DNA of 64,000 bases from a virus. The stretch lies in the IMG/VR virus record IMGVR_UViG_3300010397_000004, positions 11,023 through 75,022 of that record. One strand, 5' to 3'. A program made the translations under genes and the position numbers. Below, piece by piece: positions 3,584 to 64,000 of this stretch; within the stretch, counting starts at the first letter, position 1, and every line of letters starts with the position of its first letter. The notes beneath the pieces are model-generated. The model worked only from the letters and a program-made list of their open reading frames with translations, had not been told where the DNA came from and searched no databases.

Positions 3584-6039
3584 TGCAGGACGCCACCGCG
3601 AACTTCGCGCTCGCCGTGTCAGCGTCCACAGTGGCGTGGCTGCCGCCGCTGGTGTACGCGGACTGGGCCCAGGACGGGTACGGGACCACCAACTCGATCG
3701 ACGACCTGTCCGGGCAGTCCAACAACATCCAGATCAGCCACGGCCTCGACGACGGCCTGCCAGACGAAGTCGCCTTCGGCACAACGTCAGGGGTTCCCAC
3801 ACTCACTGCCGACCTAGGCGGCCGCGGCGAAGTGACCGCGGCGCGCTACTTCTCCCCGTTCCGCACCGACTCACCGCTGTACGGGTACGAGCGGGACGTC
3901 GCCCCGCTCAAGGTCGACCACGGGTTAGTGACCGCTGGCGGCAAGGAGCGGATCCGGGTCTTCACCGGGCAAATGGCCGACGCCCCGGTCACTGGTGAGA
4001 AGGCGTCGCTGCAGGGTATCTCCGCAACGAGGGTCGCCCTGTCCACCCTGGTGCAACCACCCGTCATCGCCGGGGTGTTCAACCTGGCCGACACCGGGCT
4101 GACCGCGTCGTGGCCGGTGTCGTTCTCGCTCTACCAGTGCGGCATCTACTCCAGCCCACCCCCCGTACCCGGGTGCCGGGTCTGGATTCCGATGCACGGC
4201 GGCGGGAATGCCATGCTGCCCTCGGAGAACAGGTACCACGGTGTGCCATCCCTGAAGGGCATCGCCAAGGTCACCGGGGACACCTTCTTCGACCTCGCCG
4301 AACCCCGCGGTACACGCGGCCCATTCGTTGGTGCCGGCCGGTGCAGAGTCACCGCTGACAAGATCGCCGGGTGGAGCGGGTTCGTTTCGGTCCACGACAT
4401 GGAGACCGGCGACGACTGGCTCACCACCGCGGGCAGTCGCGGCCGACTGCAGTTCTACGTCCGCGGCGACCTCGTCAACGTCAACACCGCCCCGGGCGGT
4501 TCGGCAAGCTTCAACTGGGACGAGGTCGCGGACGTTGGCGGCCCCAGCGACCAGATCCTGGCCGGCGCCTACTGGACTACCCCAGCCAGCGGCCCGTACG
4601 TCGTGGCAGGCGTCGACCTGTCCCGCAGAGTGTTCGTCCACGTCTTCGACGGCACCCACAACGCCACCCTCACCAGCTCGGCATCGGTGGCCAGCGACGG
4701 CGAATGGCACCTCGTTGGCGCAGCCTGGGACGTCGCCAACAACCAGCTATGGGTCAACGTCGACGGCACCGTCACCACCAGCACCCCATCGCCGACGCTG
4801 TCGACGGCCGGCCTCGGCAGCACCCACCTCACAGGCGAACTCGACGACGGCATGAACTTCAACTCGGCGCTCACCTTCGCCGAGGTCCACTTCACCACCG
4901 GCGCCAACGCCAGCCCCGCCGTCGACTCGACCTGGCTCGATACGCAAACGTGGACCCGGCGGGCGTACCTGTACCCCTCCTCGCTCCGGCTCGTCGCCGT
5001 CGCCGAGGCCCAGCCACGCGAGGCGTGGGAGTACATCTCCTCACTGGCCCAGGCCGAATGCGCGAGCCTGCGCATCGACGAGAACGATGCCGTCCAGCTG
5101 TGGCCGCGTGGTTACTTCGCCACCGTCGCGGGCCAGACCGTCGCCGAGACCATCACCACCGACCTCGATGCTGGCGTGCCCGACGTGGCAATGGACCGGA
5201 CCCGCATCCGCAACGTCGCCCGCGTCACCTACCGGCAAACGAGGATCGACGCCCAACTGACCCAGTCGCCCATCCTGGATTTCCGCAGCCTGGTGGCCAT
5301 CCCGACCGGAGTCACCCAGATCAGCTTCGCGCTGCCAACGCCTGTCATCGCCCTCCTCGATTCGCTGTTCGGGTCGTTGACCCACCTCACCGCCAACCAG
5401 ATCGCCGGGATCGACCCGTTCGCGGTCGGCCCCAACTACGTGAGTCTGAACACCAGCAGTGATGCGCTCGGAACGTACTCCACCAGCTCCGATGTGGACG
5501 TCACCGTCGTGTCCTGGGATGCCGGGCAGGTTCTGGTCCAGTTCAACAACCTGACCTCATTCACCTGGTACCTCGTCAACGACAGCGACTCGCAGGGCAC
5601 GGACTTCGCGTACCTCGCCATCCAGGGCATCGCCATCCCTTCGACCGACGCCACCGTGACCGAAGCCTATGGGGCGTCGCTGGATGTGCGCGGCGAGCGT
5701 GCGGTCGTCGTCAACCTCCCCGCCATTCAGTCCAGTGTGGACGCTGCCCGGGTGGCGCGCCGGATCCTGGGAGATCTCGCATTCCCGCAACCCGTCATCC
5801 CGCAAGTCGACGTGTTCGGTGATCCGCGCCGCCAACCAGGCGACCTGGTCGTCTTCACCGACGACGCCGAGACCGGCGCCAACGGCCAATGGCGGTGCTG
5901 GGCGGTGAAACACCGAATCAACGGCGCCGACTACCGGCAGACGCTGCGCCTGTCGCAGGCCCGCTCCGTAGGCCGGTGGGGTGATGGCGTGTCCCGTTGG
6001 GGGCGCGTTGTGTGGGCCGGACTCGAGGAGGACGCATGA
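3583..6039 (+). CDS. Minor tail/baseplate hub protein with LamG-like domain
   Basis: 818 aa; 'SDGEWHLVGAAWD...LWVNVDG' LamG-like motif; C-terminal hub-type 'GDPRRQPGDLV' signature. Confidence 0.75.
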   Translation: MQDATANFALAVSASTVAWLPPLVYADWAQDGYGTTNSIDDLSGQSNNIQISHGLDDGLPDEVAFGTTSGVPTLTADLGGRGEVTAARYFSPFRTDSPLYGYERDVAPLKVDHGLVTAGGKERIRVFTGQMADAPVTGEKASLQGISATRVALSTLVQPPVIAGVFNLADTGLTASWPVSFSLYQCGIYSSPPPVPGCRVWIPMHGGGNAMLPSENRYHGVPSLKGIAKVTGDTFFDLAEPRGTRGPFVGAGRCRVTADKIAGWSGFVSVHDMETGDDWLTTAGSRGRLQFYVRGDLVNVNTAPGGSASFNWDEVADVGGPSDQILAGAYWTTPASGPYVVAGVDLSRRVFVHVFDGTHNATLTSSASVASDGEWHLVGAAWDVANNQLWVNVDGTVTTSTPSPTLSTAGLGSTHLTGELDDGMNFNSALTFAEVHFTTGANASPAVDSTWLDTQTWTRRAYLYPSSLRLVAVAEAQPREAWEYISSLAQAECASLRIDENDAVQLWPRGYFATVAGQTVAETITTDLDAGVPDVAMDRTRIRNVARVTYRQTRIDAQLTQSPILDFRSLVAIPTGVTQISFALPTPVIALLDSLFGSLTHLTANQIAGIDPFAVGPNYVSLNTSSDALGTYSTSSDVDVTVVSWDAGQVLVQFNNLTSFTWYLVNDSDSQGTDFAYLAIQGIAIPSTDATVTEAYGASLDVRGERAVVVNLPAIQSSVDAARVARRILGDLAFPQPVIPQVDVFGDPRRQPGDLVVFTDDAETGANGQWRCWAVKHRINGADYRQTLRLSQARSVGRWGDGVSRWGRVVWAGLEEDA

Positions 6040-49020: not shown

Positions 49021-49210
49021 CCTGAGAACAAGGACCAGCGAGCAGCTGCACGACCGGCTCACCGAGATCGAGACCGAGCTCGGTCATCCGGCGGCCGACG
49101 GCCAGCTGTTCGATGACGTGATGCGCCACCTCGCGGACCTGCTCCGCGAGATCGGGCTCATCCACATCGAGCTCGCCCGCCGCACAGCGACCGGCTGGAG
49201 GCCGATGTGA
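49013..49210 (+). CDS. Small helical protein
   Basis: GGAG RBS; coupled. Confidence 0.6.
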   Translation: MPDLRTRTSEQLHDRLTEIETELGHPAADGQLFDDVMRHLADLLREIGLIHIELARRTATGWRPM

Positions 49211-50235
49211 AGGTCGCAGTCACCGGCGGCGCCGGCTTCATCGGCGGCCACGTCGTCGACGAGCTCCACGCCCGCGGCCACCAGGTTCTCATCGTCGACC
49301 ACCACGGCCGGCGCGGCCACGCCACCGACGACGAGTTCATGCTCGCCGACGTCCGCGACCCTGTCGCCATGGCCGAGGTCGCCGCCCACGTCGACGGCAT
49401 CATCCACCTCGCCGCCTGTCTCGGCACCCAGGAGACCATCCGCAACCCGCGGCCCGCCGCCGAAACCAACATCCAGGGCGGCCTCAACTTCCTGGAAGGG
49501 CTCGCCCAGTACAACATCCCGGGTGTCTACATTGGAGTCGGCAACCACTGGATGAACAACAGCTACTCGATCACGAAGACGACGATCGAGCGGTTCGTTG
49601 CCATGTACAACCAGGAACGCGGTACCCGCTGCAACGTGGTCCGGCTCGTCAACGCATACGGCCCCCGCCAGTCCGTCGCCCCCCCGTTCGGGCCGGCCAA
49701 GGTCAGGAAGATCACACCCGCGTTCGTGTGCCGGGCGCTCACCGGCGCCGACATCGAGGTGTACGGCGACGGCGAGCAGATCTCCGACATGGTCCACGTC
49801 ACCGACGGCGCGAAGGCCCTGGTGTCCGCCCTCGAGCACGCCGCCGGCGGCGACGTGTTCGACCGGGCCGTCGAATGCGGGCCGGTCCAGTCGTGCACCG
49901 TCAACGAGGTCGCGCACCGGGTCATCGAGGCCGCGACCGGGTTCGGGTTCGACCCTGTCGACCTGGTCCATCTGCCCATGCGACCGGGCGAGGTGCCCGG
50001 CGCCCGGGTCACCGCGGACACCTCCACCCTGGCTCTGGTCGGCATGGACCCGGCCAGCCTGGTGCCCCTCGACGCCGGCATCTCCGACACCGTCGGCTGG
50101 TTCATCGAGAACTGGCTCTCCGGCTGGACCGCCGCTCAGCAGAAGGCGACCAGCACCCCGCAGGACCGGTGCGTCCGGGACAGCGGCGACTGCGGATGGT
50201 GCGCCCCGACCTGCCGGCAACTCGCCGCATCATGA
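49207..50235 (+). CDS. NAD-dependent nucleotide-sugar epimerase/dehydratase (extended SDR)
   Basis: 'VTGGAGFIG', 'IHLAA', 'YSITK' (YxxxK), 'NAYGPRQ', 'YGDGEQISDMVHV'. Confidence 0.93.
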   Translation: MKVAVTGGAGFIGGHVVDELHARGHQVLIVDHHGRRGHATDDEFMLADVRDPVAMAEVAAHVDGIIHLAACLGTQETIRNPRPAAETNIQGGLNFLEGLAQYNIPGVYIGVGNHWMNNSYSITKTTIERFVAMYNQERGTRCNVVRLVNAYGPRQSVAPPFGPAKVRKITPAFVCRALTGADIEVYGDGEQISDMVHVTDGAKALVSALEHAAGGDVFDRAVECGPVQSCTVNEVAHRVIEAATGFGFDPVDLVHLPMRPGEVPGARVTADTSTLALVGMDPASLVPLDAGISDTVGWFIENWLSGWTAAQQKATSTPQDRCVRDSGDCGWCAPTCRQLAAS

Positions 50236-50810: not shown

Positions 50811-51231
50811 GGCATACGCCGCGGTCCTCGACCACTGCAGCCGGGCCCTACCCGACGAGGCGTGCGGCATCATCGCCGGCCCGGCCGGCCAGCCCCACGC
50901 CGACGTCTCCGCCACCCGGGTCGTCCCGCTGGCCAACGTGGCCGACCGACCCGGCAGCCGGTTCGAGTTCGACCCGACCCAGCAATTGGCCGCCTACGAC
51001 CAGATGGACGCCCTCCGCGAGGACCCGGTCGTCCTCTACCACTCCCACCCGGCCGGGCCGCCCGTACCATCCCCGACCGACGTGGCGGCCGCCGCCGGCG
51101 GAACCTGCCTCTGGCTCATCGTGGCCATGGCCGGCCCCGCCCCGAAAGCCCGGGTGTGGGCCATCGACGGCGACCAGGTCACCGAGCACGTGCTGCAGAT
51201 CGTGGACGGCCCCAGTGGACCCCCGGCCTGA
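50791..51231 (+). CDS. JAB/MPN+ (M67) metallo-isopeptidase
   Basis: 'LPDEACGIIAG' and JAMM motif 'YHSHP....PSPTD'. Confidence 0.9.
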   Translation: MLTLPAEAYAAVLDHCSRALPDEACGIIAGPAGQPHADVSATRVVPLANVADRPGSRFEFDPTQQLAAYDQMDALREDPVVLYHSHPAGPPVPSPTDVAAAAGGTCLWLIVAMAGPAPKARVWAIDGDQVTEHVLQIVDGPSGPPA

Positions 51232-52879
51232 CAGCTACGACCGGTGGGCCGCCTCGGAAGAGCCGGCCGCGTGGGACGACAACCCGTACGCCGACGACGT
51301 CGTATTCCCCGAACCGCCCACGTGGGCGCCCACCGCGGTGGACGCCGAAACGTTCGACCCGCAGGCGTACCTCGACCAGTTCGACCGGGTCCGGCTCGGC
51401 TCCGACCCCACCTACCGGCGGGCCGCCACCCGCCGCGACCCGCTTCTATTCGCCCTGGTCTACCTCGACCGGCACCTCCGCTCCGACGCCACCGCCGGCC
51501 AGGTCACCATGGCCGACCCGCACCTCGACTGGTGCCGGCGCGCCCTGGCCTGGCTCACGCCCGTCGTCGAGCCGCGCAGCCAACGACACGCCGAGATCGC
51601 CCCCCGCGAGACCGGCAAGAGCAGTTGGTGGTTCCTGGCCCTGCCCCTGTGGGCGGCCGCGCACGGACACGTGCGGTTCGTGGTCGCGTTCGCCGACTCG
51701 ACCGGGCAGGCCGAGACGCACCTGATGACGTTCAAGCGCGAGTTCGAGGTCAACCACCTCCTGCGCGAGGACTACCCCGACCTGTGCGCCCCGGCGCGCC
51801 GCCAGTCCGGCACCACGGTCGCCGACCGCCAAGGCATGATCCACCAGCGCAACGGGTTCTCCTTCGCGGCCAGGGGCATCGACAGCGCCAACCTTGGCCT
51901 GAAGGTGTCCGAACGGCGCCCGGACGTGATCCTGTTCGACGACGTCGAACCCGACGAGTCCTCGTACAGCGAGCTCCTGGCAGGGAAGCGGCTCCGCACC
52001 ATCATCGACGCGGTTCTCCCGATGAACCTCCTCGCCCGGGTCGTCCTCATCGGCACCGTCACCATGCCCGGGTCGATCGTGCACCAGCTGGTCCGGGCCG
52101 CCGCCGGCGACGACACCGAGGACTGGGTTGCCGAGGAACGGTTCGTCGCCCACCACGCACTCCCGATCGTCGTCCGCGACGACGGATCCGAGCGCAGCAT
52201 CTGGCCCGCGAAGTGGCCGATGGAGATGCTCAACGAGATCCGGCACACACGCTCTTATCGAAAGAACTTCGCCAACGACCCCATCGGCTCCAACGGCGGG
52301 TACTGGACTCTCGACGACTTCGTGTACGGCCAACTCGACGGAGTCGTCGCGGAGATCCTGTCCATCGACCCAGCCGTCACCACGAAGAAGACCTCCGACT
52401 TCACCGGCCTCGCCATCGTCGGCTTCCAACCATCCACAGTGGAAACCGACAGCCGCACCGGTCGCCGGGCGCAACGCCCATCGCGGTGCGTGGTCGAGGA
52501 GGCATGGGAGGTTCGCCTCACCGGCGACCCGCTACGCACCCACGTGCTGAAGCTGCTCGCCAGGCACCCACGCGTGCGCGCAGTACTGGTCGAAACCAAC
52601 CAGGGCGGCGAGAACTGGCACGCCATCCTTCACGACCTGCCCGTGAAACTGCTCACCGTGCACCAGACCGTGAAGAAGGAAGTCCGGGCCGCGAACTGCC
52701 TCAACTTCTACCAGCGGGGCCGGGTGCTCCACGCCAAGAAGCTCGCCCGCCTCGAGGAACAACAGACCGCGTTCCCGAAGGCCCCGCACGACGACATGGT
52801 CGACGCGGTGACCGCGCCGATCCTGCGCCTGCTCGCACCCGGCAAGCCGGGCAAGACCCAGACCGTGTTCCCACGATGA
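51215..52879 (+). CDS. Terminase large subunit
   Basis: Walker A 'APRETGKS', Walker B 'ILFDDVE', nuclease 'SIDPA...SDFTG', 'VETNQGG', 'HDDMVDA'. Confidence 0.93.
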   Translation: MDPRPDSYDRWAASEEPAAWDDNPYADDVVFPEPPTWAPTAVDAETFDPQAYLDQFDRVRLGSDPTYRRAATRRDPLLFALVYLDRHLRSDATAGQVTMADPHLDWCRRALAWLTPVVEPRSQRHAEIAPRETGKSSWWFLALPLWAAAHGHVRFVVAFADSTGQAETHLMTFKREFEVNHLLREDYPDLCAPARRQSGTTVADRQGMIHQRNGFSFAARGIDSANLGLKVSERRPDVILFDDVEPDESSYSELLAGKRLRTIIDAVLPMNLLARVVLIGTVTMPGSIVHQLVRAAAGDDTEDWVAEERFVAHHALPIVVRDDGSERSIWPAKWPMEMLNEIRHTRSYRKNFANDPIGSNGGYWTLDDFVYGQLDGVVAEILSIDPAVTTKKTSDFTGLAIVGFQPSTVETDSRTGRRAQRPSRCVVEEAWEVRLTGDPLRTHVLKLLARHPRVRAVLVETNQGGENWHAILHDLPVKLLTVHQTVKKEVRAANCLNFYQRGRVLHAKKLARLEEQQTAFPKAPHDDMVDAVTAPILRLLAPGKPGKTQTVFPR

Positions 52880-52900: not shown

Positions 52901-54634
52901 GTGCCAGCCCCCGCCGACCTGATCACCGCGTACGAGGAGCTCGTCGAGTACCGCCCGGCGTACGAAGAGGCCAAGGACATGTACGCCGGCCAGGTCGGCG
53001 AAACGTACGCGTCCGAGCGGGTCAAACGTCTCCTCGCCCGGGCGCGCGCCGACGACATCGAAGAGTTCAACTACGCGCACATCCCGGTCGACACCATCGC
53101 CAATCGGCTCGAGATCACGTCGGTGACCGTGGTCAGACCGGACGCGGACGACCAGACGACGGAAGGGGGCACCGGTGGGGTACGGGCCGACAGTCAGAAC
53201 ACCAAGACCCCGGATGCCGAGAAAGGTGCGCGCGTCGGTGAGGGTGCGGCTCCCAAGGCTGCGGATGCCGAGCACTACTCGCAGGCGCAGGCGGCGCTAG
53301 ACAAGCTCCGCGAGGACAACCAGCTCGACGCCGAATCCGCCGGCCTACACCACAAGGTGTCCCGCGACGGCGACTGCTACCTCATCGTCTGGCCGGCCAG
53401 CGACGACAAGGGCAAAGTCACCGCCGTCGATATGCGCGTCAACGACGCCCTCACCACCCGAGTCATCTACGACGTCGAGGACCCGCTCAAGGTCGCGTAT
53501 GCGATCAAGTCCTGGACCTACGACGAGGTCGACGCGGGCGGCAACAAGATCCAGCGCACCCGTGCCACCCTCTACTACGACAACCGGGTCGAGCGGTGGA
53601 TCAGCAAGCCCGACAAGAAGGCACAGGCCCTGTGCGACCCGGACGCCTGGCTCCCGTACGAACCCGTCGGCAAGGACGGCAAACGCGAACCCGCGGTGAA
53701 GGAACACGACTACGGCCGGGTGCCCGTCTTCCACTTCCGGAACGACCGGCCGTACGGCCAACCCGAGCACCGGTACGCGTACGGCCCGCAGCAGATGCTC
53801 AACAAGCTGGTCATGGCCCAGGCGGTCGCGGTCGACTTCCAGTCGTTCCCGCAGCGATACCTGCTCATGGACCCGTCCGCCGACCAGACCATGGCCAACT
53901 TCCTCGACCCCAACCACCCCGAGGACGACGACGACCCCGAGGGCGACGCCAACGCGTCCAACCTGTCGGCCGACCCGTCGTCGGTGTGGAAGCTGTTCGG
54001 CGCGAAGTCGACCGGCCAGTACGACCCGGCCTCACCCGACACCTTCCTCAAGCCGTTCGACCGCTACGTCCAAGCAATGGCCGAACTCACCGAGACCCCG
54101 CTCTACCGGTTCGGATCGGCATTCGCGCAGACCCCCAGCGGAGCCGCACAGCGTGCAGCCGACACCCCGACCGTCAACAAGGTCGAGAACCGGCAAAGCT
54201 CCTACGACGCCACCTGGGAAGACGCGTACCAGTTCGCGTTGAAGCTGCTCGGCTTCGACGTCACCGTCTCCGTGGCGTGGAAGCCCGCCGAGCAGGCGAC
54301 CGACTTCGAAGCGTGGTCCGTGGTCGGGGCCAAGGTCGACGCCGGGGTACCGCGTCGGCAGGCCCTCATCGAGACCGGGTACACGCCCGACCAGGTCGAC
54401 GAGTGGCTCGGCGGCGAGGCCGCGATGTCCGCGCTGCTACAGAAGAAGGTCGACCTGATCACCGGTGTCGCCAACGCGCTGCAATCGCTCGGAGCTGCAG
54501 TCGCCATGGGCGTCATCCACGAGGATCAGGTCGGTGCACTGGTGTCCTCATTGGTCGGTGAGGTACAGCAGAGCCAAGCCCAGGACACAGCGCCCGACAG
54601 CGGGCAGACCCAGGCCGCCGAGACAGGCACCTGA
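52901..54634 (+). CDS. Portal protein (SPP1-like)
   Basis: Follows TerL; 'GDCYLIVW', 'HDYGRVPVFHFRN', 'FPQRY', 'PSGAA'. Confidence 0.9.
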   Translation: MPAPADLITAYEELVEYRPAYEEAKDMYAGQVGETYASERVKRLLARARADDIEEFNYAHIPVDTIANRLEITSVTVVRPDADDQTTEGGTGGVRADSQNTKTPDAEKGARVGEGAAPKAADAEHYSQAQAALDKLREDNQLDAESAGLHHKVSRDGDCYLIVWPASDDKGKVTAVDMRVNDALTTRVIYDVEDPLKVAYAIKSWTYDEVDAGGNKIQRTRATLYYDNRVERWISKPDKKAQALCDPDAWLPYEPVGKDGKREPAVKEHDYGRVPVFHFRNDRPYGQPEHRYAYGPQQMLNKLVMAQAVAVDFQSFPQRYLLMDPSADQTMANFLDPNHPEDDDDPEGDANASNLSADPSSVWKLFGAKSTGQYDPASPDTFLKPFDRYVQAMAELTETPLYRFGSAFAQTPSGAAQRAADTPTVNKVENRQSSYDATWEDAYQFALKLLGFDVTVSVAWKPAEQATDFEAWSVVGAKVDAGVPRRQALIETGYTPDQVDEWLGGEAAMSALLQKKVDLITGVANALQSLGAAVAMGVIHEDQVGALVSSLVGEVQQSQAQDTAPDSGQTQAAETGT

Positions 54635-54636
54635 CC

Positions 54637-55641
54637 GTGGCCGGGCCGCTGCCCGACTGGATGACCGCCCACGACCAGCGGGCCCTCAAGTTCGAACAGC
54701 AAGCGCAGGACCACACCGCGGCCGCCCTCAAGCTGGCCCTTGCCGACGCGGCCCGCCGCCTGGCCGCCGAGTACATCAAGGCCGTCGGCAAACTCGATCA
54801 GCCGGTGCCGCCGACCGCGCAGAGCTCACTGCGCGCCGCCCTGCGCCGCATCGTGACCGCGCTCGCCACCGGCATGGTGTCCGAACTGCCGGCCCTCATC
54901 AGCGCGCTGACCGACATCGCCGAGCAGGGCCTGCGCCTCGGAGCGCACGCCTCGCCGGGCCGGCCGCGGCGAACCCAGCTGGCCCAGTCCGCCGAACTGC
55001 GCGCCGCGATCCGCCGAACTGAGAAGACCCTCCGCGACCAGATCGCCGAGATGCAGCAGCAGGCCGCGGCAGCAGACCTTCGCACCTTCGGTGACGTCAC
55101 CACCGTCATCGCCAAGGGCCAGCAGGTCGTCAACAAGGCCCAGGCCGCAGCCGCGTGGGCAGCCAACCGGGCCGTGAACGAAGGCGCCCGGGCAGTCGCC
55201 GACCGTTCGAAGTCACCGGTGCTGTGGGTGGCCGAACCCGGGGCGTGCCTGACCTGCTTGGCCTACGCCGGGCACCTCGCCGAACCAGGAGAACCCTTCC
55301 CGGCCGGGCTGACCTTCGGTGACAAGTCCACCGTGGACGAACCGATCGACGGACCACCGGCGCACCCGTGGTGCCGCTGCCGGCTGCAGCCCTGGTACGG
55401 CACCGAACCACAGTTCGGCGTCGAACTGCCCACCGCACTCAAGCGCGAAGCGCAACGCCAGGTACTGCGCGGGAAATCCCTGTACGCCTCGCGGCCCGCG
55501 AAGCTCCGGGCCGCTGACCGGCTACTCAAGACCAGCCTGTCCGGTCTACCCGAGCACGTGAAGCTCACCGCCGCGCACAAGGTACAGGCCGGTGTCATGG
55601 CCTGGGCCCTGCCAAAGCGGCCGCACACAACCAAGCCCTGA
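54637..55641 (+). CDS. MuF-like head morphogenesis / minor capsid protein
   Basis: 'WVAEPGACLTC', 'PPAHPWCRCRL'; follows portal. Confidence 0.8.
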   Translation: MAGPLPDWMTAHDQRALKFEQQAQDHTAAALKLALADAARRLAAEYIKAVGKLDQPVPPTAQSSLRAALRRIVTALATGMVSELPALISALTDIAEQGLRLGAHASPGRPRRTQLAQSAELRAAIRRTEKTLRDQIAEMQQQAAAADLRTFGDVTTVIAKGQQVVNKAQAAAAWAANRAVNEGARAVADRSKSPVLWVAEPGACLTCLAYAGHLAEPGEPFPAGLTFGDKSTVDEPIDGPPAHPWCRCRLQPWYGTEPQFGVELPTALKREAQRQVLRGKSLYASRPAKLRAADRLLKTSLSGLPEHVKLTAAHKVQAGVMAWALPKRPHTTKP

Positions 55642-55690
55642 GGCCGCGACGGTCCACCGGGGCAGTTCCCCAACCCAAGCGAAGGTCGAG

Positions 55691-56482
55691 ATGACACGAA
55701 CCCTGGCCGTGACGGCCAAACCGAACACGATCATCGGGTACCGCGCCAGCGGACAGCCGATCCGCCTGCACACCGGTGCGAACTGGAGCACCTTCCAGGT
55801 CACCCCGGACGAAGGCGGCGACGATGACGACGAGCCCGACGACGACGTCGACGACGTCGACGAAACGACCGACGAAGGTAGCGGCGACTGGACGCCCCCC
55901 ACACGCGAGGAGTGGGACCGCACCCAGGCCGGGCTGAAGCGGAACAACGCCGAGAACAAGCGGCTCCGTCTGCTCAGTAAGGCCCTCGCCGCCCGCGGTG
56001 TGGACCCGTCCACCGACGAGGGCAGGACCGCCCTCGACGAGCTGCTCGCCGGCCGCACCGTCGACCCCGACGGCAAACCCGCCGACGCCAGCGTGAAAAC
56101 GCAGATCACGAGGGCGGTTGAGCGGGCAACCGCGAAGACCGAAACCAAGTACAAGGGCGCGCTCGCGGCTGTGGCCGTAGAGGCTGCGCTCAGCCGGGCC
56201 GGGTACTCGGCCGGCGAGGAACGCCTGGCAAGGGTCATGAAGATGATCGACATGGACGAGGTCGACGTCGACGACGACGGCCAGGTCGTCGGCATCGTCG
56301 ACCAGATCGCCGACATCAAGCACGACGTCCCGGAATGGTTCCAGGGCACCACCAAGGCGCCCAGCGTAGTGCGCCGCGGCGCCGCCGACGTCGACGCCGG
56401 CCCCCGATCCACGAAGGCAACCGGCGACACCAAGACCTGGCTCGAGCGGGTCGACAAGCAGATGACCGGCGGCGGGGGCTGA
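55691..56482 (+). CDS. Capsid scaffolding protein
   Basis: 'IIGYRASGQPI', acidic linker, coiled coil, 'IADIKHDVPEWF'. Confidence 0.8.
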   Translation: MTRTLAVTAKPNTIIGYRASGQPIRLHTGANWSTFQVTPDEGGDDDDEPDDDVDDVDETTDEGSGDWTPPTREEWDRTQAGLKRNNAENKRLRLLSKALAARGVDPSTDEGRTALDELLAGRTVDPDGKPADASVKTQITRAVERATAKTETKYKGALAAVAVEAALSRAGYSAGEERLARVMKMIDMDEVDVDDDGQVVGIVDQIADIKHDVPEWFQGTTKAPSVVRRGAADVDAGPRSTKATGDTKTWLERVDKQMTGGGG

Positions 56483-56546
56483 CTCTCCGCACTGCACCTC
56501 CAGCACCACCCACCTGATCGCACATCACGGGCAGGGGGTGGAGTCG

Positions 56547-59500
56547 GTGGTCACCAGGAAACCATTCAAAGGCTCGCTGCATCCCCGCGGTGCGCACACC
56601 GGCAAGTTCGTCGAGAAGCTCGACGTACCAGCGTGGTTGAGCACCGTCAGCGGCCAGCTGCTCGACCTCGCAAGCGGCGGGACCGACCACAAGCAGGCGC
56701 AGGACCAGCGTGTGCACGCGGCCACCCGGGCAACCATGCAGGGCCACTCGCTGGAGACCGCCCGCCAACTGGCCCGGCCCGGCCGGACCGGAAAGGTCGA
56801 TCGGACCAAGCTGCGGGCCCAGGTCCGCGGCCTCGACGACGACAAGCTCGCCCAGCTCCGCACCGAACTGGGCAGCAAGGGCCACCCCGACGCTGTCAGC
56901 GTCGTCGACGCCGAGCTCGCCCGCCGAGCAGGCGCCACCGCGAAGGCACCCAAGGCGAAGCCGTCCCTGGCCGAACGCATCGACCAGGACGGGTACGCCA
57001 AGCAGATCCGCGCCATGAGCGACGACAAGCTCGCCGACGAGTTCGTTCGGATCTCCCGCCAACCCAGCCTCACAGCCCACGACGAAGCCGCGATCATCGC
57101 CATCGCCGACGAGATGGGCCGCCGGGACAACGCCCGGCACGCCGACACGATCAGCACTGAGCAGGCCCACCAGGACGCCCGGATCGACGCCCTCGTCGCG
57201 CGCGGGTACTCGTACCGGGACGCCTACGCCGAGGTGCACGGCCTCGACTCCGACGTGCTGGACCGGCAGGAGCGGGCGTCCCTTGTGGACGCCCAGCGAG
57301 CCAAGGGCGAAACCCGCGAGCAGGCCCTGCGCCGTCTCTACGCCGAGCACGTGCACCTCCAGTACCTGGCCGCCGAGCAGGCGTCGAACGGGCACCTGCT
57401 CACCCCGGCCGCGCGCGCGCAGGGCATCGCCGCCCTGTCGCTGTTCTCCGGCCCCAGCGCGCGGGCGAACAAGCATGCGTCGGATGAGCTGAAGGAGTTC
57501 TGGCGAACCCACCCGCGGGTCACGTACGCGGAGTTCAAGTCCGCGACGTTGGCCCGGCCGGCGGATGCGAAGGCGGCCGAGCGTGCCCGGCAGGCTGCTC
57601 GGACCGCCGAGGTGGCCCAGCCCGGCGACCGTGGTCAGAAACGCGGCCCGCGCAAGAAGCCCACCAGCCGCGGATCGCTCAGCGCCCCCGAGCGCCAGTT
57701 CCTGGTCGGGCTGTCGAAGGAGCACAGCGGGATCGCGTTCTCAGACGAGGACGGGTACCGCGACAAGGCCACCCGCGACCGCCTGGCAGAGCTGGGCTAC
57801 GTGCGGGTCGAGCCGGCCGGTGGCCGGCGGAAGGCCATCCACATCACCACGCACGGGCGCACCGCCGCGGCCGAACTCGACTCGAAAGCCATGGCCTCCG
57901 GGCCAGCGCCGGCGCAGGGGGTCTCCAGCAGCCAGCCGCCGATGGCGCGTGAACTCGCGCAACGGTCGATGACCGACCTTAGCCGCCTGGCCAGGATGTT
58001 CCATGTCTCGAGCAATGCCAAGGATCCCGAGGGTCTGGCCAGGGATATTCGAGCGAGCCGCCTTCGGGCCTGGCGCGTGCCGGGCGAGGACTCCGCCGCC
58101 GACATGGAGAAGGCCGCAGCTGGCGCCGACCATGAACTAAGGCGCGGGTTGGCCGAGATCGACGCGGCCAAGCCGGCGAAGCGGGTGCCGGCAAAGAAGG
58201 CCACCAGGAAGGCCGCCGCCCCTGACGTCGGCGACGTGGCCATCTGGGAGCCGCACGACGAGCCAGCAGTTCGTGGTGTGGTCGGCCGTGACGGACGCGG
58301 CTTGTACGTGGAGTGGCCCAACGGGACCGGCGGAAGCCCTCGCCGCGAGCGAATGACGGCGGTCAAGAAGGACGACCGGGTCCGGTTCGAGTCCCCCGAC
58401 GGCTCGCCGCTGGGCGGTTCGAAGCCACCGGCGAAGAAGGCCGCCAAGGCCGCACCGAGCGCCCCGGTGAAGCGCCTCACCGCCGCCGACCGGGCGCAGG
58501 CCGCCCGGGTGGCCAGTGCGTTCCACCAGGACTGGCAGAAGACCCAGCCCCTGTTGGGCGACGGCACCCGCAAGCCGAAATTCAAGACGACCACCGACCG
58601 GGCCTGGATCCAGGCACACGGCACCGACCAGGTGGACATCGCCAACACCTCATACGCCGACCTGCCCGACGACTGGCAGCAAGAGAACCGCGACGCCGCT
58701 GAGGTCGTGCAGCGAATCCTCAAGGAGCGCGGCGGCACCGTCGACCTGTCCGACGAGAAGACCCGCCTCGAGGTCGGCGACCAGATCCACAACGCTTGGC
58801 TCAGCCGACACGGCACCGAGGACTGGGTCAAGGAATCCGGCCTCGATGTCCCGTTCGCGGAACTGCCCCGGTCGGAGCAGGACAAGGACCTCGACCAGCT
58901 GAAGGTCGCCATGGCCGCCCTGGCGCCGGCCAAGAAGGCTACCCCGCGCAAGGCGGCCGGAGCTCCGCCGACGACCCGTGGCATCACATCCAAGGTCGAA
59001 GCCCGCAGGTCCGGGTTGATCGGGGTCGCCCGCAGTTCGGCTGTGGGCGGCAACAACCCGGCCGCCGAGGAAGTGGCCCGGATGCAGGGCTTCGATGCCA
59101 AGCCCAAGGTCGGCGACGCCAAGGCCGTGGACGCCGTGATCGCGGCCGGTGGTATCGAACTGTGGCGCGGCGGTGACCCGGCCAGCATCGACGCGATGCG
59201 CAGCGGGAACCTGCACTACGGCGGCGGGTTCTTCGGGTCCGGCTACTACTCTTCCGTCGGCCGGGGCGCGGCCGAGGACTTCTCCGGCGCCCGCGGTCAC
59301 AGCGAACCCGGCCACGGCGCTGTGGTTCGGATGGCGTTGCACCCGGACGCCAAAGTGGTCGGGTACGACGACCTCGACGCCCAGTACAAGAGCTTCGAGG
59401 CGAAGGACCCGCAACTGGCGAAGGCCATCGACCGCAACGGGTACGCGGCGATGCTCGGCTACGACGCGGTCCGCGTGCCGGCCAAATACGGGGACGGCAC

Positions 59501-62500
59501 CGCCAGCCCGGTCGACCAGCTGATCGTCCTCAACCGGTCGAAGCTGACGGTGGACCGGGACCAGGAGCACTACGCCACCGGCGACCTGCTGACCGACGCA
59601 GAGTTCGCCGACATGGTGAAGTGGTTCAACGCCAAGGACGCGGCGCAGGCCAAGGCGGACCGGGAAGCCAGTAAGGCCCGACGAAACACCGGGTCGCAGA
59701 CCACGCCAGCGAAGAGGTCAGCAGCTGCGGCACCTCCGTCTCATGTGGACGTACGCCGCGAGTTGGTCGCCGCCAAGACGCCCGACGCGCGCAAGCAGTA
59801 CCTCGAAAGCCTGGGCCTGAACAAGACCCAAGCCAACGCGCTCGCCAAGGCGCTGGGCGCCCGCCAGAACCGCGGCACCGTCGACGAGGTCCTCGACAAC
59901 ATCGTTCGATACTTCGACACCGGACCCGATACAAGGCACCACAGCGAGCCGCCCTCGGCGCCGGCCAAGAAGGCCGCGCCCAGGAAGGCCGCCAACCCGG
60001 GCGGCCTATTCGTCGCCCGACCCGGCCACCCCGGCCTTACGGCGGCGCAGAAGGCCGCGGTGCAGCGCTACACCAACAGCGACCTAGTGACCGCACAGGT
60101 CAACGACATTCTGCGCCAGGGCAAACCCCACACCGCACTCATCCGTCGCATCGACGAAGCCCTGGCCGGGTCACAGACCACAGAGCCAATGGTCACCTAC
60201 CGCGGCATGGCCGAACTGTCTGGCCACGGCCGCGAGGGCGGGGTCCAGCGGGCCCTCGGGCTCAGCGGGTCATCGCTGCCAGACAACCTGGTGGGACACG
60301 AATGGACCGAAAGGGCGTTCACCTCCACCACCCACCGGCGCGGCATCGCCGAGGTGTTCTCGTCTGGTCCGAACCCTGTGATCCTCGAGATCCGGGTGCC
60401 TGCGGGCACGCATGCAGTCGCCCGGCCCGGCGGTGAGGAGGAGGTCCTCCTCGATCGCGGCTTGACGTACCGGGTCGTGGGTGACCGGATCCAGACCCAA
60501 ATGGTGGGGATAAGCGGAGACGAACCGCTCCGGAAGCGTGTCCTCGAAGTCGAGGTGGTACCCAAGGCATCCGGTCGTGAGGCCCGCCAGGCCGAGATCA
60601 AGGCCGCCCGCCAGGTCAGTGATGTGGCCGCCGAGGTGCACGAGCTCGTTGGCAATGGGGCCAGTCCGGCGGCGATACGGCACCGCCTCGACGCCGAGGC
60701 GCAGCGCACGGGCATCGACACCCGGCGCTTGCAGGAGCTGGCCGACAACCCCGACGCGCTGAAGGCTGCCGCCGACAGGATGGCCGAGGCGGCCGGGCTA
60801 CGCCGAGTCGGCGATGTGCACCCGGCGCCGCCGATCCCATTCGACCGACGCAACCACAGCATCGCCGGCCCCGACATCGAACAGGGCCGGCCGGTGGATG
60901 TCCTGCGGCCCACGCACGTCGCCACCCTGAGCACGGGCGAAAAGGTCAACCTTGGGCCCGCCAAGGTGAAGGCGTCCACCCGGCCGCTGCCTGGCAGCGC
61001 CGCCGGCGGGACCCGGCCGGCGAAGGAGACGAAGAACGGCGTACCCGAGCCCGCGGGCACTGTGCGAGCGGAGGGCTACTCCAGCGCGCGGAACGTAAAC
61101 CTGCGAGTGGTGGCCGACGGTAATGGCGGCTACGTCGGCGAGCGCCAGGAACGCGGGACCGGCGAATGGCATTTCGATGGCGCGCTCGGCACCGGGAACA
61201 CCCCCAAGGACATCACCTCGCGCATGCCGCGTGGCCAGTGGAAAATGGTCGCCGCTCCGAAAGCGACGCCGCCGGAGGCCGCCCCGGCACCCCCCGCCCA
61301 GGGCGGCCTCTTGGCCGAATGGCATGCCCAGGACCAGACGCTTTCCGCCGCACCGGCCGGCCTCGACCGCCGCACCACCAACCTCACCCAGGCCCAGCGC
61401 ACCGCCCTGCGTTACTACCAGGGCGCCCCAGGGGTCGGTATCAACGCCGCCCTCTACCGGCCGCCCGCGCAACTACACGGGTCCACCAAGCGCACGATCG
61501 CAGCCATCGACTCGGCCATCGACGGGTCGCGCCTTACCGACGATGTCGAGGTGTGGCGCGGTATCCGCGGCGCCGACCGTGTCTTCGGCCGTGATCTCGA
61601 CGGAGACCTCACCGGCCACGAGTGGACCGAGCCCGCGTTCCTGTCCACCAGCGCCTCGCAACGCGTCGCGGCCGGGTTCGCCAGCGACAACGACGGTCCG
61701 CCCGCCCTGCTGCGCATCCGGGTACCCAAGGGCACCGGTGCGGTGCAGGTCAGCAGGCGCGACCACCAGGGTGAACTCCTGCTTCAGCGCGGGCTGCGTT
61801 TGCGGGTCACCGCCGACCACGGCACCAACGCCAACGGGCAACGGGTGCTCGACGTTGACGTGGTGCCGGCCGCCGAGGCGCCGGCCAACCCGGACGGCCT
61901 CGACGACATGGAGCCGCACAGCCTCCGCAGTTACGCCCAGGAGTACGAGGTCAAGGTCAGCGGGCGCACCGACGACCAGATCAAGGCCGACCTCCGCAAG
62001 CAAGGCATCGGGTCGCCAGCGTTCGAGCGAGCCAAGCAGGACGCCGAGGACGCCGCAGCCGGCGCCGAACCAGCAGTCACACCGGCGCACCTTCCCAGCG
62101 GCAGCACCGCGACCTCCACCCGGGTCGACGACCCAGCCGGCGAGCCCGGCCTGCTGCAAGTCCTGCCCGAGGCGCAACGCGGTGAGCCCGGCGACGGGAA
62201 GTACCGCAACCCGGACGGCACCCGCGGCCCGTGGGGCCGGTTCGGGGCATCTGGTCTCCTGCTGCGCCACGTCGGCCCCGACGGGCAGGCCCGGTACCTG
62301 CTGGGCCGCCGGTCTACGGGCGTCGAAAACGGTGGCACGTGGGCGTTCCCAGGCGGAGCGAAGGACGAGAACGAGTCCGACTACCAGGGCGCCGCCAGGG
62401 AGACAGCCGAGGAGCTCGGTCTGACCGACCAGGACCTGAGCACCGCCCGGGTCAACGGCACCCACACCGCGACCACGCCGGGCGGCTGGCACTACACCAG

Positions 62501-64000
62501 CGTCGCCGCGACGGTGCCCACCCAGTTCACGCCGAAGGACACCGAACACGGGTGGGAGACCGACGAAACGCGGTGGATGACCGCCGACGAGATCGCCGAA
62601 CTGGACCGCAAGGGCGAGCTCCACCCGGCCCTGGCCGGTGGGCAGTTGCAGGCCAACGTTCTCAGCCTGTTCCCCGACACCGCGACCCCGCGCGCGAAGG
62701 GCGGCGGCTCGGCCAGCACCTCGGCGCCTGCTGTCCGACGGATGTCGAACGACTTCTCCGGCGGCGTTATCCCGGTCATCGCGCGCGAGAAGGCCGACGC
62801 GCCGATCCACCTGCCCAACCACGGCAGCGACCAGGGACTGGTTCACCTCGACTCGGCGCTCGGGTCGCTGTGGAACGACCTGTACCACGACCAGCGTGAA
62901 CCGAACTCGTTCATCAACGAGATCGCCATCCTGGGTGACCGGTCGGGCAACTTCCAGATCAGCTTCGACGATGTCCTCGACCGGCTACGCGAACTGAAGA
63001 CGCAGGCCGCCGACCAGGCCGTGGCCAACCGGATCCAGGAGGCCATCGACTCCATCGACTCGCCGCGGGTCCCGGTCCCCGAGGTTCCCGACACCGTGCC
63101 GGACGTCGTGAAGAACTACCTGGCCGACCTCGCCGAGATCCCAACCGCCAGGCGGACGGGCCGCCTCGGCGGGCACGACACCGACAAGTCGGTGCTAGAC
63201 CAGCAAGCTGAACTCATTCGCCGGATCGACGCCGGTGAGGTCGACCGCCACCGCGCTCTCGACCTGCTCCGCGCGAGACACCTTCACGAAAGCACCGACG
63301 GGGCCACGCACATGTGGCGCCTGGCCGACCACCTGGTCACCCCGAAAATCGTGACCGGGTACGAGCGCGGGCCCGACGGCACCATGCAACCGGTCGAGGA
63401 GGACAACCCCAACTACAGGATTGTCCGTGACTGGCTGCGGGACGCCCACGCCCGCCGGGCTGGCCGCCCGACCAGCTCCAGCCCCGAAAGCAAGCCGCCG
63501 GCCACGGACAAACGCGGTGCGGCCCGTGCCGCCTACCAGGCTGTCGTGGACGCACGCCCCTACGCCACCGCCGGCGCCGAACTCGCCGAACTGCTCGACA
63601 AGAAGGCCGACAACAAGGTCATCGCCGAGCACATCAGGGCGATCGCTAACCCCGGCCACCCGGACATGGAGGAGGCCGCCCGCGGCGGCAACGGCGACAA
63701 GATCCGCCGCGACCTCGAGGCCGTCGCCACCGCGTTCGACCGCGGCGACGACGCGACCGGCAAACGGCTGATGCTGGCCCTGCTGAAGCAGCACAACCTC
63801 AGCACCGTTGGCGGCGAACCCGGTAACGAGAAGGCTTTCAACCCGGACGTGCACGAGGGCGTCGGCGGCGATCATCAGACGGGCGACCGTGTGCGCGTGG
63901 TCCGGCCGGGCGTCTCGCTGCGCCGCGGTCCGGGCGATGATGTGCAGCTGTCGCGGGCGTTAGTGCGCAGCGTGCCGACGGCCCCGGCCCCGGCTTTGGC
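56547..64000 (+). CDS. Giant (>2,480 aa, 3'-truncated) polyvalent protein: RyR repeat, three ART/ART-like domains, NUDIX, GrpE-like repeats
   Basis: Manually translated segments all fall in the same frame (start positions divisible by 3). The ORF track lists no + ORF in that frame past 56482, as expected for a frame with no stop before the window end. Motifs are detailed in the findings. Confidence 0.88.
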   Translation, partial: MVTRKPFKGSLHPRGAHTGKFVEKLDVPAWLSTVSGQLLDLASGGTDHKQAQDQRVHAATRATMQGHSLETARQLARPGRTGKVDRTKLRAQVRGLDDDKLAQLRTELGSKGHPDAVSVVDAELARRAGATAKAPKAKPSLAERIDQDGYAKQIRAMSDDKLADEFVRISRQPSLTAHDEAAIIAIADEMGRRDNARHADTISTEQAHQDARIDALVARGYSYRDAYAEVHGLDSDVLDRQERASLVDAQRAKGETREQALRRLYAEHVHLQYLAAEQASNGHLLTPAARAQGIAALSLFSGPSARANKHASDELKEFWRTHPRVTYAEFKSATLARPADAKAAERARQAARTAEVAQPGDRGQKRGPRKKPTSRGSLSAPERQFLVGLSKEHSGIAFSDEDGYRDKATRDRLAELGYVRVEPAGGRRKAIHITTHGRTAAAELDSKAMASGPAPAQGVSSSQPPMARELAQRSMTDLSRLARMFHVSSNAKDPEGLARDIRASRLRAWRVPGEDSAADMEKAAAGADHELRRGLAEIDAAKPAKRVPAKKATRKAAAPDVGDVAIWEPHDEPAVRGVVGRDGRGLYVEWPNGTGGSPRRERMTAVKKDDRVRFESPDGSPLGGSKPPAKKAAKAAPSAPVKRLTAADRAQAARVASAFHQDWQKTQPLLGDGTRKPKFKTTTDRAWIQAHGTDQVDIANTSYADLPDDWQQENRDAAEVVQRILKERGGTVDLSDEKTRLEVGDQIHNAWLSRHGTEDWVKESGLDVPFAELPRSEQDKDLDQLKVAMAALAPAKKATPRKAAGAPPTTRGITSKVEARRSGLIGVARSSAVGGNNPAAEEVARMQGFDAKPKVGDAKAVDAVIAAGGIELWRGGDPASIDAMRSGNLHYGGGFFGSGYYSSVGRGAAEDFSGARGHSEPGHGAVVRMALHPDAKVVGYDDLDAQYKSFEAKDPQLAKAIDRNGYAAMLGYDAVRVPAKYGDGTASPVDQLIVLNRSKLTVDRDQEHYATGDLLTDAEFADMVKWFNAKDAAQAKADREASKARRNTGSQTTPAKRSAAAAPPSHVDVRRELVAAKTPDARKQYLESLGLNKTQANALAKALGARQNRGTVDEVLDNIVRYFDTGPDTRHHSEPPSAPAKKAAPRKAANPGGLFVARPGHPGLTAAQKAAVQRYTNSDLVTAQVNDILRQGKPHTALIRRIDEALAGSQTTEPMVTYRGMAELSGHGREGGVQRALGLSGSSLPDNLVGHEWTERAFTSTTHRRGIAEVFSSGPNPVILEIRVPAGTHAVARPGGEEEVLLDRGLTYRVVGDRIQTQMVGISGDEPLRKRVLEVEVVPKASGREARQAEIKAARQVSDVAAEVHELVGNGASPAAIRHRLDAEAQRTGIDTRRLQELADNPDALKAAADRMAEAAGLRRVGDVHPAPPIPFDRRNHSIAGPDIEQGRPVDVLRPTHVATLSTGEKVNLGPAKVKASTRPLPGSAAGGTRPAKETKNGVPEPAGTVRAEGYSSARNVNLRVVADGNGGYVGERQERGTGEWHFDGALGTGNTPKDITSRMPRGQWKMVAAPKATPPEAAPAPPAQGGLLAEWHAQDQTLSAAPAGLDRRTTNLTQAQRTALRYYQGAPGVGINAALYRPPAQLHGSTKRTIAAIDSAIDGSRLTDDVEVWRGIRGADRVFGRDLDGDLTGHEWTEPAFLSTSASQRVAAGFASDNDGPPALLRIRVPKGTGAVQVSRRDHQGELLLQRGLRLRVTADHGTNANGQRVLDVDVVPAAEAPANPDGLDDMEPHSLRSYAQEYEVKVSGRTDDQIKADLRKQGIGSPAFERAKQDAEDAAAGAEPAVTPAHLPSGSTATSTRVDDPAGEPGLLQVLPEAQRGEPGDGKYRNPDGTRGPWGRFGASGLLLRHVGPDGQARYLLGRRSTGVENGGTWAFPGGAKDENESDYQGAARETAEELGLTDQDLSTARVNGTHTATTPGGWHYTSVAATVPTQFTPKDTEHGWETDETRWMTADEIAELDRKGELHPALAGGQLQANVLSLFPDTATPRAKGGGSASTSAPAVRRMSNDFSGGVIPVIAREKADAPIHLPNHGSDQGLVHLDSALGSLWNDLYHDQREPNSFINEIAILGDRSGNFQISFDDVLDRLRELKTQAADQAVANRIQEAIDSIDSPRVPVPEVPDTVPDVVKNYLADLAEIPTARRTGRLGGHDTDKSVLDQQAELIRRIDAGEVDRHRALDLLRARHLHESTDGATHMWRLADHLVTPKIVTGYERGPDGTMQPVEEDNPNYRIVRDWLRDAHARRAGRPTSSSPESKPPATDKRGAARAAYQAVVDARPYATAGAELAELLDKKADNKVIAEHIRAIANPGHPDMEEAARGGNGDKIRRDLEAVATAFDRGDDATGKRLMLALLKQHNLSTVGGEPGNEKAFNPDVHEGVGGDHQTGDRVRVVRPGVSLRRGPGDDVQLSRALVRSVPTAPAPAL

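Follow-up and report, generated by a model that had tools for sequence, protein, structure and literature searches.

The 64,000-nucleotide (nt) stretch analyzed here, hereafter the window, covers bases 11023-75022 of the 75,022-bp IMG/VR virus record IMGVR_UViG_3300010397_000004, which has a 123-bp direct terminal repeat. Toward its end lies the start of a giant gene, and we consider it likely that the product is an effector that travels in the virion, is injected in the manner of T4 Alt, and attacks the host through several ADP-ribosyltransferase (ART) domains; we infer its packaging, injection, catalysis, and targets. The predicted protein has four domains of the PF03496 family, two copies of a second ART-fold family, one NUDIX domain, and recurrent modules of another kind. 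Two or more distinct effector domains are joined in a single phage polypeptide, and the gene is associated with virion and packaging genes, two hallmarks of polyvalent proteins.

The giant ORF and its R-S-E domains

An earlier note on this DNA had read three ART-type domains with different catalytic signatures at 59070-61870. In the list of open reading frames (ORFs) and its translation, that region lies inside one plus-strand ORF, still open at the end of the window, and every motif quoted in the note is in frame there. All three regions proved to be of the ART type, and the count was too low: past the edge of the window, the ORF has a further pair of PF03496 domains and another copy of the divergent domain. 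The reported differences in signature held up as well, with third motifs of the ExE and QxE forms and, in the divergent domain, an Arg/Tyr/Gln variant.

56538..64000, continuing past the window end to contig bases 122-3034, plus strand: giant polyvalent-protein gene (from the ORF list, the translation, and the join across the repeat)

The first in-frame GTG is at 56538, giving a full length of 3,457 amino acids (aa); the GTG chosen by the gene caller in an independent assembly is at 56547, giving 3,454 aa. An assembly artifact at the terminal repeat is ruled out as the origin of so long an ORF, given that the protein also occurs, as P0158 (3,454 aa), on the 75,040-bp contig of that independent assembly, differing in nothing but the start and the substitution T3322I. 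No close relative of the whole protein was found in the viral or genome contig collections searched, the 14-kb region had no megablast match among phages, and a protein-atlas search with aa 2035-2487 gave no lead.

The PF03496 profile (ADPrib_exo_Tox; curated cut-off, 23.4 bits) was searched against the whole phage record. Its four matches above the cut-off all fall in the giant ORF (64, 62.1, 40.7, and 24.5 bits). In Pfam scans of the protein, it matched two stretches in the window part (E value of 3e-33) and two in the C-terminal part (2.8e-16), well beyond what chance would give. The latter, ART-3 (aa 2774-2951) and ART-4 (aa 3260-3457), lie beyond the window edge; the former are as follows.

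60021..60566, plus strand: ART-1, aa 1162-1343; PF03496, R-S-E type, with YRG, FTSTT, and E-E-E
61368..61871, plus strand: ART-2, aa 1611-1778 (best PF03496 stretch, aa 1614-1760); R-S-E type, with WRG, FLSTS, and Q-G-E

The motifs of ART-1 are VTYRG at aa 1219 (nt 60192), FTSTT at aa 1261, and GEEEVLL at aa 1299; those of ART-2 are VWRG at aa 1672 (nt 61551), FLSTS at aa 1701, and HQGELLL at aa 1743 (nt 61764-61784). Aligned with one another, the four paralogues show no variation at the catalytic Glu, at the Arg of region 1, or at the S-T of region 2. Around them, the motifs of regions 1 and 2 vary (YRG/FTSTT, WRG/FLSTS, WRG/YLSTS, and WRG/YSSTS), as does the -2 position relative to that Glu, which is E in ART-1 (E-E-E), Q in ART-2 (Q-G-E), A in ART-3 (A-R-E), and E in ART-4 (E-A-E). 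The catalytic domain of Certhrax in the PDB aligned with ART-1 (E value of 7e-6) and weakly with ART-2 (0.0096). Certhrax carries QxE yet modifies an Arg of vinculin.

ART-1, ART-2, and ART-4 fit in full the consensus of the toxin group, (Y/F)R, (Y/F)xSTS, and (Q/E)xE (PMC6628389), whereas ART-3 keeps the Glu without a Q or E two positions before it. Neither variant is peculiar to this gene. The QxE form is also found in P0121, and in a clade that includes P0128, P0114, P0096, and P0152, x-E is preceded by a residue that is small or hydrophobic (A, L, or S) or, in P0096, by Tyr. The presence of three different residues (E, Q, and A) at the specificity position would fit the use of different acceptors. 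The earlier note had ExE enzymes typically modifying Arg and QxE enzymes modifying other acceptors. That stands as a tendency and fails as a rule: AexU has QxE although its ExoS-like group is otherwise ExE, and the C3-like enzymes SpyA and Vis have ExE (PMC6628389).

How such an array arose can be addressed by comparing its parts with one another and with other proteins. The paralogues are 26-47% identical in a tiled self-BLAST of the giant protein. The tree splits the R-S-E domains between two old clades and sets the ART-3 type apart from the rest; the support for the ART-3 clade is 93/99, and it is drawn open, as a long-branch row sits inside it. ART-2 tends to pair with the domain of P0121, at a borderline support of 80/77, and ART-1, ART-2, and ART-4 are not resolved among the domains of other proteins. 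At aa 2508-3217 (contig bases 183-2311 of L003) lies a cassette of ~710 aa composed of an unknown domain of ~260 aa, ART-3, and copy B of the divergent domain. It is collinear with the C termini of P0128 (51% over 718 aa), the portal-fused P0096 (40% over 741 aa), and P0114 (38% over 730 aa). In L004, the shared part is limited to the divergent domain (72% identity), which lies within an otherwise unrelated 1,232-aa protein that has a peptidoglycan-binding domain; save for this domain, a tblastx comparison of the giant gene with L004 returned high-G+C noise.

Because the cassette is collinear in three other proteins and L004 shares a domain and nothing else, module shuffling is suggested, and the array looks as though it was built from mobile cassettes and not by recent duplication in place. 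The duplication and diversification within the gene proposed in the earlier note are thus not borne out. That the ARTs arose by recent tandem duplication is judged unlikely on the same two grounds, and the tree, mostly unresolved as it is, agrees.

A divergent ART-fold family

The first of the three regions within the window differs from the PF03496 domains. Its second copy, copy B, occupies aa 2995-3217 of the giant protein.

59040..59567, plus strand: divergent ART-fold domain, copy A, aa 835-1010 (from the AlphaFold2 fold and family conservation)

Copy A carries LWRG at aa 875 (nt 59160), GFFGSGYY at aa 897, GYDAVRV at aa 974, and DQLIVLNR at aa 993 (nt 59514-59537), and its signature can be summarized as an Arg (in LWRG), Gly-x-Gly-x-Tyr, Gly-Tyr-Asp, a Gln at the position equivalent to the catalytic Glu, and Leu-Asn-Arg. 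Copy B has Glu at that equivalent position. The domain matched no Pfam or PHROG model and, searched as a single domain or as a profile, no PDB sequence. The PARP (PF00644), ART-PolyVal (PF18760), and RES (PF08808) profiles likewise gave no match to it at an E value of ≤1. The faint signals that do exist are one subthreshold ART-PolyVal match in a relative, P0015 (E value of 0.0036; 18.5 bits against a cut-off of 31.2), and a weak contact of the R-S-E profile with the W-R-G region (E values of 0.009-0.06).

The predicted structure is more informative. An AlphaFold2 model of copy A, built from a 40-sequence alignment, has a predicted local distance difference test (pLDDT) score of 91.7 and a predicted template modeling (pTM) score of 0.88. 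Its best match in VIA-align, with a Z score of 9.5 (139 aa; root mean square deviation [rmsd], 3.3), is 9k3a_B from the pre-ejectosome of cyanophage A4. It is followed by the catalytic domain of SAIP, a Streptomyces insecticidal toxin (Z of 8.0), diphtheria toxin (7.7), ParT (7.2), and MbcT (7.1), with many PARPs at a Z of 5-6 and RES also among the neighbors. Foldseek placed 9k3a_B and PARP2 (E values of ~2e-3) and PARP14 at the top. Judged from the model, the domain has an ART fold, and the superfamily is unambiguous.

Which kind of ART it is can be asked of the 172 full-length copies in the family, with active-site positions placed by motif order and predicted secondary structure, not by superposition of residues. 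The Arg of W-R-G is present in 168 copies; it ends strand 1 (predicted strand, 44-50), where the H-Y-[EDQ] clade has His. The Tyr of G-x-G-x-Y, on strand 2 (strand 73-77), is kept in 166, the Asp in 170, and the Asn and final Arg of Leu-Asn-Arg in 169 each. At the start of the catalytic strand, the Glu-equivalent position varies widely: 56 copies have Q, as copy A does, 32 have E, as copy B does, 24 have Y, 12 have H, and the remainder have other residues. The order of motifs in PARPs is W-H-G, G-x-G-x-Y-F, Y-D-S-V, and E-Y-h-h-h. The divergent domain recalls this diphtheria toxin/PARP-like order with Arg in place of His, and it is not assignable to either classical ART clade. Conservation of the Arg, Tyr, Asp, Asn, and Arg indicates strong purifying selection on the domain as read from the alignment. 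Since the Glu-equivalent position is not conserved, transferase activity cannot be assumed for it.

The family is large. A phmmer search of the full library gave 898 representatives (at 50% identity) with E values of ≤1e-3, 182 of them at ≤1e-10. Some members are stand-alone proteins of 200-300 aa; at the other extreme are giants in which as many as four full copies occur. A homologous-protein search found two proteins with the single domain and four with alignment A1. With a smaller alignment, A3, the domain was detected in 53 IMG/VR viral contigs of 43-70% G+C, in frames that measure 239 to 5,890 aa between stops; a contig end truncates a few of these frames. By tblastn, it was found in none of 50,697 GenBank phage records and in no PLSDB plasmid.

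The earlier note had likened this domain to those found on phage head proteins, and its relatives agree. It is fused to Phage_Mu_F in P0141, P0094, L016, and L005; in L016, it is the C-terminal cargo of a MuF protein of ~780 aa. P0096 combines Phage_portal, NUDIX, PF03496, and the divergent domain. Others carry a Zeta toxin, GNAT, or PI3/4-kinase-like domain. The family is mostly virus borne and often anchored to the head through a MuF or portal fusion.

Three further observations concern this family. Chain B of 9k3a, at residues ~1261-1604, places the best structural match within an ejection protein of cyanophage A4 whose structure has been solved. The paper describing that structure (PMC12002296) makes no mention of ADP-ribosyl, PARP, or diphtheria, and an ART-fold domain there may so far have gone unremarked. 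Two frames with the divergent domain, L025:1157-18826 (5,890 aa) and L023:6116-19459 (4,448 aa), both measured stop to stop, are larger than the giant frame described here, and L023 has a PI3/PI4-kinase-like match. Finally, many stand-alone members of 200-320 aa (P0017, P0035, P0037, P0038, P0062, P0076, P0132, and P0139) open with a conserved H-L-P-G-K-H-D-Q-x-x-H-G upstream of the domain, a motif that could be a targeting or cleavage signal.

Genomic context and accessory modules

The giant gene sits in the middle of the head genes. The order is terminase, portal, a weak MuF-like ORF, scaffold, the giant gene, a 120-aa ORF with no family match, and major capsid.

51215-52879, plus strand: large terminase (weak Terminase_6C match; E value of 0.0021, 18.5 bits, below the 22.6-bit cut-off)
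52901-54634, plus strand: portal (Pfam SPP1_portal)
54637..55641, plus strand: 334-aa ORF after the portal (subcut-off Phage_Mu_F match at 55120-55386, E value of 0.005, 13.5 bits; phrog_115 minor head protein, 3e-4)
55592-56482, plus strand: scaffold (Phage_scaffold; phrog_194)
57003..57551, plus strand: N-terminal module of the giant protein, aa 156-338 (like the C-terminal part of MuF-like or "capsid maturation protease" proteins)
Contig 3744-4808, after the giant gene: major capsid gene (phrog_10 major head protein)

The N terminus of the giant protein itself points to the head. By tblastn, aa 259-333 are 55-59% identical to genes of Streptomyces phages for MuF-like minor capsid proteins or capsid maturation proteases; in phage Ignacio, gene 5, of 602 aa, is matched at about aa 503-576. 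In addition, phrog_1752 matches aa 58-339 (E value of 9.7e-11). This part of the protein is a candidate module for incorporation into the head. The phage has a G+C content of ~70%, and this composition and the likeness of the N terminus to Streptomyces phages suggest an actinomycete host, probably one like Streptomyces. Just upstream of the terminase region lies a gene for an NAD-dependent epimerase/dehydratase (49207-50235; PF01370, E value of 8e-38), an unusual place in a phage genome for a sugar-nucleotide enzyme.

Besides the ARTs, the giant protein has a predicted Nudix hydrolase and two copies of a recurrent module. About 1,500 aa of the chain fall outside every part assigned here.

62283..62603, plus strand: NUDIX hydrolase domain, aa 1916-2022 (PF00293, E value of 2.4e-11; phrog_1198, 6e-19)
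60570..60998, plus strand: recurrent helical and beta module, copy A, aa 1345-1487 (homology to other polyvalent proteins, alignment A4)
63525..63998, plus strand: recurrent helical and beta module, copy B, aa 2330-2487 (AlphaFold2 model and fold matches)

The NUDIX domain follows ART-2 and lies inside the window; its PF00293 match scores 44.2 bits against a cut-off of 21.1. As read from the translation, the Nudix box is intact (G-AKDEN-E-SDYQGAA-RE-TA-EE-L-G-L, compared with GX5EX7REX2EEXGU). NCBIfam assigned no Nudix subfamily, and the region is 53% identical to that of the portal-fused P0096. Going by its motif, the enzyme plausibly cleaves ADP-ribose, NAD-type caps, or signals derived from ADP-ribose.

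The recurrent module of ~150 aa, with four or five helices and a small beta domain, has homologous segments in L005 and six further polyvalent proteins, and it ends in the motif F-D/N-P-x-x-H-E ... V-x-V-V-R-P-G ... V-x-L-S-x-A-x-V. For copy B, the best AlphaFold2 model has a pLDDT of 91.0 and the other four have 54-64. The first nine Foldseek ranks for the best model are all GrpE, with weak E values of 0.075-0.65. VIA gave Mycobacterium tuberculosis GrpE (8gb3_E) a Z of 8.0 (rmsd, 2.7; 97 aa; 21% identity), tied with unrelated helical bundles, and 8gb3_E is the only match that covers both the helical and the beta parts (model residues 1-150). The GrpE profile, PF01025, had no match at an E value of ≤1 in the genome search or the Pfam scans, and the modules had no PDB sequence match. 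We regard the likeness to GrpE, which is one of fold only, as a lead; by extension from the model, the module could bind host DnaK.

Between modules of the giant protein, there are four Lys/Ala/Pro-rich basic linkers of a PAKKA type, at aa 551, 631, 797, and 1142 (window positions 58188, 58428, 58926, and 59961). We take them to resemble the basic DNA-binding tails of actinobacterial nucleoid proteins. Such linkers could bind packaged DNA or mark sites of processing. A reading of 58500-58920 as RyR repeats is unsupported, as PF02026 had no match at an E value of ≤1, whether aa 355-854 were scanned or the entire record was searched.

Proposed mechanism, alternatives, and known systems

In the mechanism that we favor, a few copies of the giant protein would be built into the capsid and, on ejection, would enter the host together with the phage DNA, as T4 Alt does and as has been proposed for MuF toxins and polyvalent proteins. 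Once inside, acting as one chain or as pieces cut at the Lys/Ala/Pro-rich linkers, the enzymes would use host NAD+. The four Alt/VIP2/C3-type mono-ADP-ribosyltransferase domains would differ in their acceptors, and the two divergent ART-fold copies might transfer or hydrolyze ADP-ribose or might only bind NAD+ or ADP-ribose. A role against several targets, as the earlier note had imagined, would fit the concept of polyvalent proteins (PMC5512222).

Several points weigh against this mechanism. The Pfam scan found no Phage_Mu_F or portal domain in the giant protein, and the sole MuF signal in the genome is the subthreshold match in the neighboring ORF at 54637-55641. With 3,457 residues, the protein has an estimated mass of ~370 kDa, and passing it through the tail is mechanistically demanding; no peptidase domain that might release the modules was found in it. 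ART-3 deviates from (Q/E)xE, the divergent domain has no conserved catalytic acid, with Gln in copy A, and some of the domains may be inactive or serve only in binding. If the ARTs are strongly toxic, it is also unexplained how a lysogen would be protected without a Macro or ADP-ribosylhydrolase (ARH) gene. The phage record has no match to either, and a phage-encoded eraser of ADP-ribose acting as an antidote is unsupported.

One can envision other uses for the same parts. The ART-fold and Nudix domains might form a counterdefense toolbox that binds, consumes, or destroys immune molecules derived from NAD+ or that ADP-ribosylates defense proteins, in which case the Arg/Tyr domain would be a binder of NAD+ or ADP-ribose, or an NADase, and not a transferase. 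The conservation pattern of the divergent family is consistent with this, in that the putative residues of the NAD pocket are kept and the Glu equivalent is not. So are the structural neighbors, which include the NAD+-degrading toxins MbcT and RES, as well as ParT, and the recurrence of NUDIX, a PF03496 ART, and the divergent domain together in P0096. Virion-packaged Nudix, Macro, and NADAR proteins have been argued to counter ADP-ribose-derived signals (PMC9503650). However, all four PF03496 domains have the complete transferase motifs typical of toxins that modify proteins, the Nudix domain has no substrate assignable through NCBIfam, and no defense-related family was identified in the giant protein, although PADLOC was not searched. 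We think a counterdefense role unlikely. It is very unlikely, in our view, that the protein is a MuF-type polymorphic toxin used by lysogens, whose particles would deliver the ART array into nonimmune competitors or bias the choice between lysis and lysogeny. MuF toxins do often carry ART domains, and they are confined to temperate phages (PMC5576092); the divergent domain is C-terminal cargo in the ~780-aa MuF proteins (L016), and its exchange as a single domain, seen in the 72% identity shared with L004, is reminiscent of polymorphic toxins. Yet these toxins have an N-terminal MuF domain of the PF04233 type in the same protein. The giant protein has none, only the C-terminal part of MuF-like proteins being matched; no small immunity-like gene was identified next to it, the following 120-aa ORF having no family match, and neither a Macro nor an ARH antidote is encoded.

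We find it extremely unlikely that this is an internal head protein of mainly structural or degenerate character, in which the ART-like domains are relic pseudoenzymes kept as bulk cargo or DNA-condensing material. The Gln of divergent copy A and the Ala at position -2 of ART-3 would suit decay, and the PAKKA-type linkers, which resemble basic DNA-binding tails, would suit condensation. Against this, all four R-S-E domains keep the Arg, the STS, and the Glu, the Nudix box is intact, and the key residues of the divergent domain persist in 166-170 of 172 copies, in proteins of very different composition, which indicates selection on a pocket and not for bulk. We can also imagine the giant protein as a self-contained, injected machine for NAD+ and ADP-ribose with two parts that have escaped recognition, a partner ART-fold domain and modules that engage DnaK, an idea that we hold to be decidedly unlikely. 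Here, the Arg/Tyr domain, rather than being a simple transferase, would bind or process NAD+ or ADP-ribose for the R-S-E ART of the ~710-aa cassette. By analogy with the mitochondrial Hsp70/GrpE import motor, the GrpE-like modules would engage host DnaK to ratchet in and refold the ~3,450-aa chain; alternatively, they could present DnaK as a target.

The injected multi-ART effector that we favor bears on several questions. Experimental knowledge of head-packaged ARTs comes almost entirely from T4 Alt, and polyvalent proteins have so far been a computational concept; the giant gene is a compact test case for whether one particle-borne protein can hit several host targets. It brings to light a large, mostly virus-borne ART-fold family that is in no Pfam or PHROG model and combines an unusual Arg/Tyr signature with a catalytic acid that is not fixed. 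Should the likeness of the recurrent modules to GrpE prove genuine, they would also tie injection of the protein to the Hsp70 system of the host.

Among known systems, the polyvalent proteins come closest. In these, ARTs are the commonest protein-modifying domain, with up to 12 copies per protein (PMC5512222; Iyer, Burroughs, Anand, de Souza, and Aravind, 2017). The giant protein resembles them in its very long chain, its several effectors, its place among virion genes, and its predicted delivery with the DNA. It differs in the type of ART: theirs are H-Y-D domains (ART-PolyVal/HYD2), whereas it has four R-S-E domains and no match to PF18760, and its second ART-fold family has Arg, not the His of ART-PolyVal. 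Alt/VIP2-type ARTs were said in 2017 not to occur in genuine polyvalent proteins (PMC5512222), a claim that the giant protein contradicts.

T4 Alt and the Alt/VIP2 ARTs fused to MuF share with the giant protein R-S-E mono-ARTs encoded with head genes; theirs are packaged, and Alt is injected. MuF toxins include an active MuF-ART, EFV (PMC5576092), and head-packaged ART and Nudix enzymes form a broader theme in which a MuF, portal, or protease partner can be joined to Nudix (PMC9503650). Each Alt or MuF-ART protein, however, has one ART on a recognizable MuF or stand-alone scaffold, whereas the giant protein combines a Nudix with four R-S-E ARTs and the two divergent ART-fold copies in ~3,450 aa with no MuF core. 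The C3, C2, and Certhrax toxins (PF03496) are similar at the level of the domain, as ART-1 and ART-2 align to Certhrax and fit the consensus. Identity to these toxins is low, though, and the giant gene lies in a phage structural cluster without a secretion or translocation component; ART-3 and its relatives, moreover, lack Q or E two positions before the Glu, where the residue is small or hydrophobic (Tyr in one).

The divergent domain shares its fold with diphtheria toxin and PARP, with ParT, RES, and MbcT, and with 9k3a_B (Z scores from 9.5 to 5.0). It departs from diphtheria toxin and PARP in having Arg for His on strand 1, a variable Glu position, and an invariant Leu-Asn-Arg after it. Its best match, 9k3a_B, is itself an ejection protein from inside the virion. 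Taken together, the giant protein is a variant of the known polyvalent phage effectors, and what is new in it is the set of four R-S-E ARTs, the lack of a MuF core, and an uncatalogued Arg/Tyr ART-fold family.

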